DNA of 64,000 nt, taken from sequence record PZ386951.1. One strand, written 5' to 3'. Positions 42,907 through 48,342 of the stretch are shown one piece after another. The notes under the pieces are model-generated. The model had not been told where the DNA came from, made no database searches, and worked only from the letters and a program-made list of their open reading frames with translations. This DNA comes from a phage. Positions within the stretch are counted from its first letter, which is position 1. Every line of letters starts with the position of its first letter. The position numbers were made by a program, and so were the translations under genes.

Positions 42907-43280
42907 TTAAATTTAATGGCTTGAAGAAGACTAATAACTCTCAAGCGGCTTCTTTCATCTTTAACTGTAAAGGAAAGAGGGTCACCAGATTTCATAGTGA
43001 TAGTGCATTCAAAATCAAAATCTTCAGGAACTTCTTCGAAGAAGTCAAATTCTTCATCATAAATTAGAACATTACTTTGAAAACTGTGAAGAATTTTTCC
43101 ATCATTTCCAGATGCTGTACTAATCATTGTAACATTATGGCCTTTCATATCTTCAACGATAAATTCGCTTGTAGATATTACAGCATTAATAGAACCATTC
43201 CTATAAATAGCAGACATTAGATATTTCTTTTCTTCACCTTCGCGAATACGGTATTTCTTACCAATTTTAAACATAATCAC
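42903..43280 (-). CDS. hypothetical protein (125 aa; track start is GTG, probable ATG start at 43274)
   Basis: ORF upstream of gene 39. Confidence 0.5.
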   Translation of the reverse strand: MIMFKIGKKYRIREGEEKKYLMSAIYRNGSINAVISTSEFIVEDMKGHNVTMISTASGNDGKILHSFQSNVLIYDEEFDFFEEVPEDFDFECTITMKSGDPLSFTVKDERSRLRVISLLQAIKFK

Positions 43281-43453
43281 CCTTTAAGTAAATCGTAAAA
43301 ACCACCATTCACATGCTTAGGAGCAGAAACTAACCGAATAGCAATCCGATGACAATCAGGACATACATCAGTATCCCTTTCAGAAATTTTCTTGATTTTT
43401 TCGTATTCTTTTGCACAGTCTTTGGATTGACATTTATAATCATAAAGAGGCAT
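43277..43453 (-). CDS. small zinc-ribbon protein (58 aa), below cutoff
   Basis: translation MPLYDYKCQSKDCAKEYEK...CPDCHR has CxxxxC-x17-CxxC; TGA overlaps next start. Confidence 0.5.
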   Translation of the reverse strand: MPLYDYKCQSKDCAKEYEKIKKISERDTDVCPDCHRIAIRLVSAPKHVNGGFYDLLKG

Positions 43454-43455
43454 AA

Positions 43456-43875
43456 TTATTCCTTAAAGTGAGCTTTCAACATTTGATACAAGGACCATGC
43501 TTGTTCATTATTTTCAATAGTAACTTTCATTACCGGGAATTCTGTGAAATCTTCTATTTGTTCTTGCTCTTCCTGCTCTTGTTCTTCAGCAGCCTGATAT
43601 GGATTTTCAACTTCATCAAAGAACCCAGCTTCGTTAGTAGAGAGCCAGATAAAGTTTTCGTCAAGGATATCACCACCGGCACAACGTTTGAGCACACCTA
43701 TGGATGTCATAATTTTAGTAGGACGCCCAAGATAATCAGCATCTAAAATTTTAAAAGGCTCCATACCTAAACGTCGTGCATAGATTCCGTTATCAGTATG
43801 GTCTTTAATAAAATTTTCTTGAGCTTGTTTATTTTTAAATTGATACCATTTATTAACTTCAAATTTAATAGCCAT
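43456..43875 (-). CDS. hypothetical acidic protein (139 aa)
   Basis: ORF; [10 protein letters not shown] acidic tract. Confidence 0.5.
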
Positions 43876-44093
43876 TAATAAATTTCCTTCCAGTAAGTTG
43901 TGCCATCTTCAGTAATTTCACGAAATACACCGTAAATTGGTTGTTTATCACCGACTTTCTCATACACATAAACCGAAGTCAAGTGAGTAAACTTGCTAGT
44001 ATGTTCCTTTTGAACTACTACCAAATCTGGATCGAATAATACATCTTCAAATTCATCATTAGTGCAATTCTGAACAATTTTACGTTTCATCAT
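43875..44093 (-). CDS. hypothetical protein (72 aa)
   Basis: ORF. Confidence 0.5.
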
Positions 44094-44189
44094 AATTTCC
44101 TCATTAATTGAACATTGGAGAGATGCGTTTCAGAAGAGTATCAGCACCTTTAACGAATTATCCATTTTATTCTTCAAGTTGTTTTCTGT

Positions 44190-44245
44190 ATCAGTAGTTG
44201 ATATTGATATAGTACCATAATCAACTACTGATGTATATAGTTTTA
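44190..44245 (-). promoter_or_regulatory. early promoter with flanking 13-bp inverted repeat
   Basis: TGG-TACTATAT -10; ATCAGTAGTTGAT / ATCAACTACTGAT arms at 44190-44202 and 44220-44232. Confidence 0.45.
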
Positions 44246-44263
44246 TGAAAAAAATTTTAAACT

Positions 44264-44755
44264 TTATGCATAGCGAGCTTTGCTGTAGTGTTTAATCCAA
44301 CTTTCAGGAATGACTTTGTATGTTCCTAAAAATACCACATTGTACAGCTTAACACCATCTTCTACCCATTGATCAGTAATGTATGCACACATAGCGCGAG
44401 TACGCTGAGGAAGTGGTTGTCCACCTTCGGTAAATTCAAACTCATAAGGAGCAACGAACTTGATAGCTTGACCGAGTTTCCACTTAAAGTCTACACCTAC
44501 GTGCGAAGTATCAATTGTTTCAATTCCTTTAGCAGGAACATCTTTCAAAAACGCAGATTCAAGAAATTTCGCACGAACATAGCCAAACTGAGGTTTAGAC
44601 TTTCCATCTTTAGGAATGATACGAACTTTTACTTCAGAATCTTCATCTTTAACACCATGCTTAAGCTGAATGCTTACAATTTCGACCAATTTTCCTGCTG
44701 CTTTAGAACGGGATTTATCAGATACACGAGCAATTTCACCAATATTAATAATCAT
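44264..44755 (-). CDS. hypothetical protein (163 aa), paralogue of 44829-45263
   Basis: shared C-terminal motif TDQW(V/I)EDGV.L.NVV..G.Y.V.P. Confidence 0.55.
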   Translation of the reverse strand: MIINIGEIARVSDKSRSKAAGKLVEIVSIQLKHGVKDEDSEVKVRIIPKDGKSKPQFGYVRAKFLESAFLKDVPAKGIETIDTSHVGVDFKWKLGQAIKFVAPYEFEFTEGGQPLPQRTRAMCAYITDQWVEDGVKLYNVVFLGTYKVIPESWIKHYSKARYA

Positions 44756-44828
44756 AGTTATCTCTCACTTGTTAAAAAGATTTTATACTCCACAGGACCA
44801 TTATACTCTGGTCCCAAGAGTTTGTAAA

Positions 44829-45263
44829 CTAGCTTACACGAACATTAATCACTGCGCTGCGAGGAACTACTGAGTACTCTCCAGCATGAACTACATTAAG
44901 AAGTTCAACGCCATCTTCGATCCACTGATCAGTTACCCAACCGCCAATCGGATTCGCGAATGGACGACGAATGTAAACTGCCTTACACAACAAATCAGTC
45001 GGGTCTTCAGGTTTTTCAATTTCTGTCAATAGATTAAAATCTTCTTCATAGATGATGAATGATGATACCCTTCCATAATAGTTTCTAATTTCCATGTACA
45101 CTGTACCAATGAGAATTCCGCTATTAACACTAATAACAGTAAAAGGATATCCGCCAGTTGTACCAAGAAGTTCCCAAAATTTGCTATCAGTCGTATTCGA
45201 CATTGTCTGGAAATCAATTTCAGATGGTTTTTTCATTTGATACGCAGTATTAATTTTAATCAT
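44829..45263 (-). CDS. hypothetical protein (144 aa), paralogue of 44264-44755
   Basis: shared C-terminal motif with neighbour. Confidence 0.55.
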   Translation of the reverse strand: MIKINTAYQMKKPSEIDFQTMSNTTDSKFWELLGTTGGYPFTVISVNSGILIGTVYMEIRNYYGRVSSFIIYEEDFNLLTEIEKPEDPTDLLCKAVYIRRPFANPIGGWVTDQWIEDGVELLNVVHAGEYSVVPRSAVINVRVS

Positions 45264-45273
45264 AATTTTCTCT

Positions 45274-45813
45274 TTAGTTTAAGGTAATAAAGCCTTTTAG
45301 TTCGGCATAGGATTTACGGAACATTACTTGATGCCCGCCAACGATAACTTGGTCATCTGGTACTTCGTATATAGCAAGATAAAATCCTTTCGAAGCTAAT
45401 TCTTCACGCTCTTCTCGTGTGAACCATCTCATCATATCATATTCGCTAGCGAAAGCAAAATGATAAAGAGCTATAAACCATCCTGGAATATGATATTCTA
45501 CTCCAACATAATCTTTCTTGAACTTAGTATTAATTACTATATTAGCGTTTTTAACTAATAGTTTATCTTCGTGTGGTAAAGGAATTCTTTTATTATTATC
45601 GCTATGATGCATAAAATTAGGTCTGTCATAACCTACGTGTAATAGCCACTCTTCGCTCCATGAATCTATTATACTCCTGTACGGCGTTATTTGAACACAA
45701 AGATTTCGACGTATTGTTATAGCATCTTCATAATCAAGAATACTAAACGATGATTCAACACGATAAATTTTCATTTTATTATCCTCAGTAGCTATGGTGT
45801 TATAATACCACAA
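45274..45813 (-). CDS. hypothetical protein (179 aa)
   Basis: ORF with early promoter at 45800-45832. Confidence 0.55.
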   Translation of the reverse strand: MWYYNTIATEDNKMKIYRVESSFSILDYEDAITIRRNLCVQITPYRSIIDSWSEEWLLHVGYDRPNFMHHSDNNKRIPLPHEDKLLVKNANIVINTKFKKDYVGVEYHIPGWFIALYHFAFASEYDMMRWFTREEREELASKGFYLAIYEVPDDQVIVGGHQVMFRKSYAELKGFITLN

Positions 45814-45832
45814 CTAACCGAGGAAGTAAACA
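45800..45832 (-). promoter_or_regulatory. early promoter
   Basis: GTTTAC -35, TGG-TATTATAAC -10. Confidence 0.55.
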
Positions 45833-45837
45833 ACTTT

Positions 45838-46521
45838 TTATCGTTTTGTTGGAAGAGATAGAGGATCGCAATCTTCCTCTGACGGAGCATCTTCAAGACC
45901 CATAGCGTATCGCAAAGCATACTTCATCATCAGGATGTCTTTCGCACAGTCATGAATAGAATCATGCGCAACGAATCCATCTAAAGTTCCTTTTGGAAGA
46001 GGACACGTGGTCATATCACGAACAAGCAGAAGTGCTTCAATTCTGGTACGAATATCACGCTGATTCCAGAATTTACATGGTTCTAACTTAAATGTGTCAA
46101 GTTCATTCTCAGAAACACCATTAAGACGTTGAATATCACGAATGAGATCGACTAAAATTGGAAAATCAAACGACATTCCACGGCACCAGCCTTGAGATTT
46201 CCAAGGATCGATATTATGCGCATTGATGTAATCATTAAATTTTGCAATACCGTCAATAGTGCTTACATCTTCATCTGATGGTGCAATATTTTTTCGAGCT
46301 TCAGGTGATTGATTTTTCCACCATTCGATAGTGCTTTTAGTAAAAAGACGATGTCCTTTTTGGCTTTTTAAATCAAATTTGATTTTAATGCCACGTGAAA
46401 CTAATTCATCAAATGTTTCAACTACTTCTGGATTAGGATCAAAGGCAATAACAGCCAAATCAATAACAGCTGCTTTTTCACCGCTTCCCATTGTTTCAAA
46501 ATCTATAATAAAATCAAACAT
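45838..46521 (-). CDS. dexA: exonuclease A (DnaQ-like 3'-5' exonuclease, 227 aa)
   Basis: 227 aa; N-terminal DFET exonuclease motif (FIIDFETMG). Confidence 0.85.
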   Translation of the reverse strand: MFDFIIDFETMGSGEKAAVIDLAVIAFDPNPEVVETFDELVSRGIKIKFDLKSQKGHRLFTKSTIEWWKNQSPEARKNIAPSDEDVSTIDGIAKFNDYINAHNIDPWKSQGWCRGMSFDFPILVDLIRDIQRLNGVSENELDTFKLEPCKFWNQRDIRTRIEALLLVRDMTTCPLPKGTLDGFVAHDSIHDCAKDILMMKYALRYAMGLEDAPSEEDCDPLSLPTKR

Positions 46522-46796
46522 TAAATTTTCCTTGCTAAATCGCGAATTTGACCTACAGTATAATCTTGGATATAAACTTTATTAATAGGCTCATCAATAA
46601 ATTTTGCCATAGATTCAATATCTTTTTGCATCTCTTCAAGACTGTATATTATCTTTAAAGCTTTTTCGCGAATAGTAATATTTTCAGGACCAGAATTTTT
46701 CTCAATGACAGCTTTAACATTTGTCATAAGAGATTTAAACTGACACCAACTTAATTCAATCATTAATAACCGCCTTATAAAGATGGCTAATTTCAC
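46521..46796 (-). CDS. hypothetical protein (91 aa)
   Basis: ORF between dda and dexA. Confidence 0.5.
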   Translation of the reverse strand: MKLAIFIRRLLMIELSWCQFKSLMTNVKAVIEKNSGPENITIREKALKIIYSLEEMQKDIESMAKFIDEPINKVYIQDYTVGQIRDLARKI

Positions 46797-47016
46797 CTAA
46801 AACATAATCGCTGATTGTAACAGTTTTTACTTCACCACAAAAGAATTCTAACGCAATCAAATCTCGTTCAATTTCTTCCAATTGAAGCATTAACTTGCCT
46901 GATTCAGTTTTCACATTTTTGCGATTTTTGCTATAAGCTATTTCATAAATTTCGCTTACTTTATCTTGAAGAAGATAAAACTGATCTTTAGTTATTTCCA
47001 CGAATAGCTTCCTCAA
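46756..47016 (-). CDS. hypothetical protein (86 aa)
   Basis: ORF between dda and dexA. Confidence 0.5.
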   Translation of the reverse strand: MRKLFVEITKDQFYLLQDKVSEIYEIAYSKNRKNVKTESGKLMLQLEEIERDLIALEFFCGEVKTVTISDYVLGEISHLYKAVIND

Positions 47017-47022
47017 ATTTAA

Positions 47023-48342
47023 TCATACATAAAATACATCATAACGACCACGGGTAACACCAACATAAAGAAGTTGTTGAGCTAATTCAGCATCTGCATA
47101 ATGAATACAAGGCGTATAAATGAAAGCACGGTCTACAGACATACCCTGAGCTTTATGGAATGTTGATGCAGGAAGTGCTTTCACTTTACTAAACTGTGAT
47201 TTAGCATCCCAAAAATCACTCCATGGAGCTTTTCCGCCTTTATTCCAGTTCTTATAAGTTTCTGCCGTTTTACCTAAAAATAGGTTAAACTTATACAGCT
47301 CTTCATCAGATGAAATTATTTTAATCTTTTCACGATAATATTCATCATCGCCGTAAGTTTCTACTGTTAAATCCCAATGACGAATTAAGTATTCTCCAGA
47401 AACACCACGAGCTTTAACAAAGGTTGATGTATACTCTGCTTCTATAATACGAACTAATTGTCCGTTATTAAAAATAATTTCTGACACAGGCTTTCCATCA
47501 ATTTTATATGTTTTAATTAATGGTTCCTGCATTACAATAATTTCACCGACAATAAAATCTTTATCAGTTTCAAAAATCTTTTTACGAATAATGCTATTTA
47601 ACTTGTCAACAGATTTATTCGTAAATGCCATTACACGATTTTCAAACAAATCATCTAGTGATTTGACGATTGAAAAATAATTTACCATAAAATCGCGTAA
47701 AGCGGTATCACCAGTAAATCCACGTACTCCATGACCGTCAACAACTTTATCATAAATCCACTTACCGTTGCGAACATCAGTAGCTACATCAATAATAGGA
47801 GCATTACTGCGTTTAACTTCAGTAAGTTCACATTGATAAAAATCTTTATGTGTAAAGAATGGACTGATATAAGCAGTATTTTCTCCTGGATCAACAGGTC
47901 TAATTTGCTTATTATCACCTATTCCAATTATTGTGCACCACGGTGGAATAGTTGAAAGCAAAATTTTGAAGAGCTTTCTATCATACATTGACCCTTCGTC
48001 GCAGATTAATACCCTGCATTTAGCTAAATCTGGTACTTCTTTTTGTTCAAAAAGAACGTTTTCTTCATATGTTACTGGGTTAATTTTAAGAATACTATGA
48101 ATAGTACTCGCTTCTTTCCCTGATAGTTTTGAAAGAATCTTTTTAGCTGCATGAGTAGGAGCTGCTAAAATAATACCAGTTTCACCCGTAGATATTAAAG
48201 CTTCAATGATGAACTTAGTAAGAGTAGTCTTACCGGTACCGGCAGGTCCATTAATAGTTACATGGTGTTTCTTTTCTTTAATAGCCTTCATAACGATGTT
48301 AAAGGCATTTTTCTGGCCTTCGGTCAAATCATCAAATGTCAT
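47023..48342 (-). CDS. dda: Dda SF1B DNA helicase (439 aa)
   Basis: Walker A GPAGTGKTT; 439 aa as T4 Dda. Confidence 0.95.
   Translation of the reverse strand: MTFDDLTEGQKNAFNIVMKAIKEKKHHVTINGPAGTGKTTLTKFIIEALISTGETGIILAAPTHAAKKILSKLSGKEASTIHSILKINPVTYEENVLFEQKEVPDLAKCRVLICDEGSMYDRKLFKILLSTIPPWCTIIGIGDNKQIRPVDPGENTAYISPFFTHKDFYQCELTEVKRSNAPIIDVATDVRNGKWIYDKVVDGHGVRGFTGDTALRDFMVNYFSIVKSLDDLFENRVMAFTNKSVDKLNSIIRKKIFETDKDFIVGEIIVMQEPLIKTYKIDGKPVSEIIFNNGQLVRIIEAEYTSTFVKARGVSGEYLIRHWDLTVETYGDDEYYREKIKIISSDEELYKFNLFLGKTAETYKNWNKGGKAPWSDFWDAKSQFSKVKALPASTFHKAQGMSVDRAFIYTPCIHYADAELAQQLLYVGVTRGRYDVFYV

Follow-up and report, generated by a model that had tools for sequence, protein, structure and literature searches.

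Two adjacent genes on the minus strand of a 64,000-nucleotide stretch of phage DNA (sequence record PZ386951.1; the whole stretch is called the window below) encode MotB and MotB.1, early proteins of a T4-like phage that carry different N-terminal domains (NTDs) in front of a common C-terminal domain (CTD). From predicted structures, we conclude that this CTD is a small SH3-like (Tudor/KOW-like) barrel and that the OB-fold label given to it by Patterson-West et al. (2021, PMC7827196) is unsupported. The explanation that we favor, and judge on balance to be probable, is that MotB and MotB.1 are two-barrel proteins in which the homologous CTD serves as a constant docking or assembly module, while the N-terminal barrels bind nucleic acid. 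The pair, its shared CTD and the duplication hypothesis were already published in 2021: MotB and MotB.1 of T4 were described as having a common conserved CTD and different NTDs, with motB.1 immediately upstream of motB and one gene probably a duplicate of the other (PMC7827196). Two results go beyond the published MotB/MotB.1 papers, namely the SH3-like barrel assignment and an extra G in the RefSeq copy of T4 motB.1, which appears from record comparison to be a one-base error cutting the protein short within the shared domain.

Identification of motB and motB.1

The window derives from a T4-like (Tequatrovirus) phage, as positions 43800-46000 share 94.7-95.2% identity with T4 and phages close to it and the surrounding genes, each on the minus strand, are ordered as in T4: the gp39 topoisomerase subunit gene, goF, cef, motB, motB.1, motB.2, dexA, dexA.1, dexA.2 and dda. 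A previous sequence-only reading of the window had noticed two adjacent open reading frames (ORFs) of 163 and 144 amino acids (aa), and these were located as follows.

44264..44755, minus strand: motB coding sequence, 163 aa plus stop; the syntenic T4 gene is annotated motB
44829..45263, minus strand: motB.1 coding sequence in its intact form, 144 aa plus stop; the syntenic T4 gene is annotated motB.1

The 163-aa ORF matches Pfam family PF17613 (motB) over residues 1-163 and profile positions 1-162 of 162 (E 5.6e-98, 325.8 bits, where the gathering score is 25 bits), as well as phrog_1671 (E 2.3e-76). By this full-length profile match, its place in the genome and its division into two domains, of which the NTD is KOW-like, it is the ortholog of T4 MotB, and it is 88% identical to a cluster representative (P0124) that has the CTD loop sequence of T4. 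The 144-aa ORF matches phrog_2333 over residues 1-143 (E 2.4e-68) and is the ortholog of T4 MotB.1: it has the same position upstream of motB, its residues 1-136 are identical to those of resequenced T4, and public data include clusters that are 100% identical to it. It differs from T4 in its last 8 residues (VINVRVS), which are another allele than that of T4 (VVAILN). Its match to PF17613 is confined to residues 103-138 and profile positions 118-153 (33 bits, E 7e-8), so MotB.1 belongs to the MotB family through its CTD alone.

The sequence-only reading had not recognized the genes as motB and motB.1 and had called their function unknown, which is outdated for the 163-aa protein. In T4, MotB is produced early and abundantly, binds DNA tightly without sequence specificity and is toxic to the host (PMC6070864, PMC7827196), and its amount has been estimated at ~40,000 molecules per cell (PMC6070864, PMC7827196, PMC12152347). 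It co-purifies with H-NS and StpA only when DNA is present, alters the H-NS footprint and up-regulates 75 host genes (PMC6070864, PMC7827196, PMC12152347), and it doubles burst size (PMC6070864, PMC7827196).

A shared C-terminal domain

The motif common to the two proteins reads AYITDQWVEDGVKLYNVVFLGTYKVIPES in MotB and GWVTDQWIEDGVELLNVVHAGEYSVVPRS in MotB.1, in agreement with the form given earlier from the letters. BLASTP of MotB against MotB.1 aligned this block with 17/29 identities and 22/29 positives (E 1e-10) and found no significant similarity between the N-terminal halves. When the family alignments (29 MotB and 23 MotB.1 sequences) were compared with hhalign, the match covered MotB 94-159 and MotB.1 92-143 (probability 98.5%, E 3.7e-15), again with no N-terminal match. 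This extent indicates that a whole domain of ~55-65 aa is held in common, beyond the 29-aa core that lies at these positions.

44300..44386, minus strand: shared core motif, MotB aa 124-152 (BLASTP block)
44856..44942, minus strand: shared core motif, MotB.1 aa 108-136 (BLASTP block)

The BLASTP E value and the hhalign probability rule out a chance similarity of the C-terminal blocks. The shared block and the divergent N-terminal halves noticed by the sequence-only reading therefore stand, and the similarity, on whose significance that reading depended, is significant in both comparisons; the extent of the domain had been missed. No further copy of the domain was found in the 64-kb window, either by a regular-expression scan or by a six-frame hmmsearch with the CTD profile, where the next hit had an E value of 0.14.

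Predicted structures of MotB and MotB.1

Structure prediction, together with the published assignment of the MotB.1 NTD, divides each protein into two small barrels, with the following boundaries.

44552..44755, minus strand: MotB NTD, aa 1-68, a basic KOW-like five-stranded barrel
44489..44551, minus strand: MotB inter-domain linker, aa 69-89, predicted to be disordered (predicted local distance difference test score, pLDDT, <50 at residues 70-83)
44267..44488, minus strand: MotB CTD, aa 90-163, predicted SH3-like barrel in common with MotB.1 (AlphaFold2 strands, hhalign)
45018..45263, minus strand: MotB.1 NTD, aa 1-82, published as an LSm-like barrel (PMC12152347)
44832..45002, minus strand: MotB.1 CTD, aa 88-144, predicted SH3-like barrel in common with MotB

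AlphaFold2 modeled full-length MotB with a mean pLDDT of 79, giving a five-stranded N-terminal barrel with strands between residues 8 and 67, a disordered segment at 70-83 and a CTD with strands at 97-108, 117-132, 135-142 and 145-150, a 3-10 turn and a last strand at 154-157 (block pLDDT mostly 80-93). The linker at aa 69-89 varies in length and carries insertions in homologs. The MotB.1 CTD (aa 85-144), modeled on the combined CTD alignment, has the same order of elements (pLDDT 90.1, predicted template modeling score 0.74), and Foldseek superposed it on a BFVD model of a 163-aa MotB with a template modeling (TM) score of 0.79 and a root-mean-square deviation of 1.6 A. Prediction of the shared domain, which had been suggested as a check on the similarity, thus gives a small beta-barrel with one strand order in both proteins.

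The 163-aa ORF has the N-terminal basic KOW-like barrel of the MotB family. In the models, the CTD has the features of the SH3-like (Tudor/KOW-like) small beta-barrels, with five strands, a 3-10 turn before the last strand and a fold that superposes on members of this group; its sequence identity to the structural neighbors, which include Tudor, chromo, PWWP, BAH and KOW barrels, is 8-21%. An OB topology with cold-shock, S1 or eIF5A C-terminal domains as neighbors was not found for the CTD, which resembles the OB-fold and cold-shock domains (SCOPe b.40.4.5) in being a small five-stranded beta-barrel, a fold often used for nucleic-acid binding. At the level of sequence, no Pfam family besides motB matched the CTD at E <= 1, which leaves it outside the Tudor and KOW families by this measure, and the CTD profile found nothing among PDB sequences at E <= 10. 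eIF5A has both an SH3-like (N-terminal) domain and an OB domain. As the published OB-fold assignment of the MotB CTD came from HHpred hits to eIF5A (PMC7827196), the presence of these two domain types may account for the discrepancy with our models, which place the CTD among the SH3-like barrels.

Kim et al. (2025, PMC12152347) place the NTD of MotB.1 in a family of LSm-like barrels that also includes GoF and Frd.2. When MotB.1 was compared with the window's GoF protein by BLASTP, no alignment was obtained. MotB.1 aa 1-88 cross-match the GoF family phrog_622 weakly (E 0.0019), and hhalign aligned MotB.1 1-86 with GoF 4-92 in register at a non-significant E value of 0.092, using shallow alignments in which all of the listed GoF homologs are >= 80% identical. 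The GoF link of the MotB.1 NTD is not confirmed by these sequence profiles, and the structural claim is that of PMC12152347.

Conservation, charge and a proposed role for the shared barrel

In both families, variability is lowest in the core of the shared domain, with an entropy of 0.46 bits in MotB and 0.15 bits in MotB.1 (114 cluster representatives) compared with ~1.1 bits in the NTDs (1.12 in that of MotB). The residues D, W, E, G, L, N, V and V are invariant in both families. Charge is distributed unevenly between the domains. The MotB NTD is basic, with a family median net charge of +5 and an isoelectric point (pI) of ~10, and the family medians of the CTDs are -2 in MotB (pI ~5.2) and -4 in MotB.1 (pI ~4.3). 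In the window, full-length MotB.1 has a pI of 4.7 and its NTD is also acidic (net -3).

In the mechanism that we favor, the tight, non-specific DNA binding published for MotB would come from its basic KOW-like barrel. The C-terminal barrel, which is usually acidic and has an invariant D-x-W-x-E-x-G ... L-x-N-x-V face, would be a constant module for docking or assembly, through which the proteins could form self- or hetero-associations along DNA or contact a single conserved partner from the host or the phage. In MotB.1, this module would be attached to a ligand-binding barrel of another kind, the LSm-like one.

An alternative that we regard as unlikely, though a serious one, is that the shared C-terminal barrel itself binds nucleic acid in both proteins, as Patterson-West et al. 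proposed with their OB-fold label, and that the N-terminal barrels are accessory. Structural neighbors of the CTD are often nucleic-acid binders (the Ski2 insertion barrel, PWWP with single-stranded DNA, Spt5/NusG KOW and Hfq-like barrels), conservation is highest in the CTD in both proteins, the CTD of the window's MotB has a net charge of +2, and Patterson-West et al. hold both MotB domains as candidates. Against this, the CTDs are acidic across both families, as is the MotB.1 of the window, MotB carries its basic charge mainly in the KOW-like NTD, and there is no basic residue among those invariant in both families.

One part of the MotB CTD departs from this conservation.

44390..44431, minus strand: hypervariable tip of the beta1-beta2 hairpin of the MotB CTD, aa 109-122, with the highest family entropy (1.88 bits)

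Here the window carries another allele than T4, with amino-acid changes in 9/14 codons and one gap, while the rest of the gene is ~90% identical. Several distinct loop alleles occur among near-identical proteins, and the hypervariable tip could result from diversifying selection or from patchwork recombination.

A replaced loop between close relatives, like the two alternative C-terminal tails of MotB.1, might be taken as a sign that the similarity of the two genes is itself a recent gene-conversion or recombination tract, a DNA-level event between neighbors. The two genes lie side by side in one orientation, and T4-like genomes are mosaic. However, DNA identity between the two 29-codon blocks is only 61%, and the third positions agree in 13/29 codons, which implies that the similarity is old and has been kept at the protein level, with no recent DNA copy. 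In addition, both paralog lineages have been kept separately across hundreds of phage records, and the motB.1 core of the window differs from that of resequenced T4 by synonymous changes alone (8 synonymous and 0 replacement codon differences). Recent gene conversion is very improbable and was rejected on the DNA identity and the diverged third positions.

An extra G in the T4 reference copy of motB.1

Inside the motif, the T4 reference AF158101 (identical in sequence to NC_000866) contains an additional G, reading GGATTGGAAGATGG compared with GGATTGAAGATGG. The site corresponds to window positions 44913-44926, at motB.1 codons ~113-117, and to ~2600-2640 in the retrieved piece of NC_000866.4. 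As a result, the RefSeq product of T4 motB.1 is 119 aa long (13.80 kDa) and ends ...TDQWIGRWR, compared with 16.2 kDa for the intact protein. Four re-sequenced T4 records, read base by base or by annotation, encode an intact MotB.1 of 143 aa, and megablast of the reference segment returned 13 T4-type records that differ from it by one position (140 vs 141 bases). On this comparison of records, the RefSeq motB.1 appears to contain a one-base error.

Kim et al. (2025, PMC12152347) worked with synthesized genes, quoted MotB.1 as 13.8 kDa and found it to be largely insoluble. The quoted mass is that of the 119-aa RefSeq product, in contrast to the 143-144 aa (~16.2 kDa) encoded in the window and in other T4 records. 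If the synthetic gene was built on the RefSeq annotation, its protein would be without strands beta3 to beta5, and studies based on that annotation, including that of the 13.8 kDa MotB.1 (PMC12152347), may have used a broken C-terminal barrel.

That motB.1 is a decaying, non-functional duplicate, as the frameshift inside the motif of the T4 RefSeq copy and the normal growth of T4 deleted for motB.1, with no laboratory phenotype (PMC12152347), might suggest, is scarcely credible, since the extra G is found only in AF158101/NC_000866 while 13 other T4-type records and the window encode an intact protein, the core motif, exact or with one residue changed, is present in all but two fragmentary or truncated entries among the 120 retrieved out of 231 matching protein clusters (E <= 0.001), and the window differs from T4 over aa 1-136 by 13 synonymous and 0 replacement codon differences.

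Distribution and history of the domain

A search of 1.84 billion representative proteins with the CTD profile gave 34 matches at E <= 1e-3, of which 21 were at E <= 1e-10. The small matching proteins that were retrieved are of the MotB/MotB.1 type, and two that were looked up by contig sit in T4-like gene neighborhoods. Five long repeat proteins (601-862 aa) that match over only ~22 residues, two of which were read and contain the segment GYATEQWVEDKGY, were treated as spurious. The CTD is always C-terminal and in single copy, and the barrels that precede it differ in type and number between phages.

A KOW-like barrel before the CTD (MotB)
One LSm-like barrel before the CTD (143-145 aa)
One barrel and a short [ILV]D.D..S.Y linker motif before the CTD (164-169 aa)
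One or two GoF-like barrels before the CTD, in some proteins preceded by an additional N-terminal module (180-251 aa)
A KOW domain before a CTD of the MotB.1 type ('DPTDLL')

The proposal from the sequence-only reading of a duplicated domain with diversified N-terminal modules is borne out by these varied architectures, together with the profile comparison, the matching strand order in independent models and the published account (PMC7827196). The N-terminal modules may act in target recognition, as that reading suggested. The linker motif, approximately [ILV]D.D[ILV]..(S/C).Y..P, recurs directly before the CTD, or ahead of each N-terminal barrel, in many members of the family (homologs P0020, P0028, P0029, P0031 and P0240-P0245); it is present in the 164-169-aa variants and absent from the 144-aa MotB.1 of the window.

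In two divergent T4-like contigs (L005 and L006), the place of motB and motB.1 is occupied by one KOW+CTD gene alone, directly upstream of cef and ahead of the gp39 gene, and the longer of the two contigs has dexA and motB.2 on the other side of it. In L006, the CTD of this gene is of the MotB.1 ('DPTDLL') type. The lone KOW+CTD gene in these contigs suggests that the single-gene state is ancestral. An ancestral KOW+CTD gene would then have been duplicated, with one copy later gaining a GoF-type N-terminal barrel. Public data also include a 43-aa protein (P0246) that is a natural fusion of the first 17 residues of MotB.2 (MKIYRVESSFSILDYED) and the last 26 of MotB.1 (GVELLNVVHAGDFSVVPRSAVVAILN), which points to a deletion across most of motB.2 and motB.1 in some phage.

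Neighboring features

A promoter-like site lies in the spacer between motB.1 and motB.

44800..44828, minus strand: promoter-like site TTTACA-17-TATAAT, an 11/12 consensus match

Its sequence is kept in T4, and a 'promoter' feature is annotated there in phages wV7 and fPS-65. An Rfam scan of 43000-47200 gave no match, no terminator-like site was found in 43400-47100, and the antisense ORF at 44369..44827 on the plus strand has no family match. On the 3' side of the motB stop, in the motB-cef spacer, a stem-loop is encoded at 44190-44232 on the minus strand, with 20-nt full-length arms that are 85% complementary. Folded as RNA, it has a free energy of -23.5 kcal/mol (z -5.0 vs shuffles); its 13-nt core arms are identical in T4, it has no Rfam match and no T-run follows the stem. 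This stable stem-loop could mark the 3' end of an mRNA or act in RNA processing or stability.

Upstream of motB.1, motB.2 (45274..45813, minus strand) is labeled 'transcriptional regulator' in some records, as are motB and motB.1. The shared domain is not present in it; its sole Pfam hint is a sub-threshold match to SRA (SET and RING associated; E 0.093), and a PDB sequence search gave nothing meaningful and no support for SRA. Further upstream, dexA.1 and dexA.2 (46521..46796 and 46756..47016, both on the minus strand) form a second tandem paralogous pair, with 27% identity over 83 aa (E 6e-9). Their ORFs overlap by 41 nt and match positions 73-159 and 1-80, respectively, of the 160-position phrog_1700, and these matches to its two halves indicate that in some phages there is probably a single protein with an internal repeat.

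Implications

A more specific version of the docking model can be put forward tentatively, and we consider it rather improbable as a whole: the CTD would be a Tudor/KOW-like docking module with an invariant, exposed D-x-W-x-E face for a common partner or for MotB-MotB.1 pairing, MotB.1 would be a partner in, or a modulator of, the coating of the nucleoid by MotB, and the reported inactivity of MotB.1 in plasmid assays and its insolubility would be artifacts of the 119-aa product.

With an SH3-like and acidic CTD, the likely DNA-binding surface of MotB would move to the KOW-like NTD, and the conserved barrel would be left seeking a partner. Constructs or models made from the RefSeq motB.1 annotation would test a broken protein. 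Both the predicted fold of the acidic CTD and the apparent RefSeq error may therefore be of use to researchers working on the early genes of T4.
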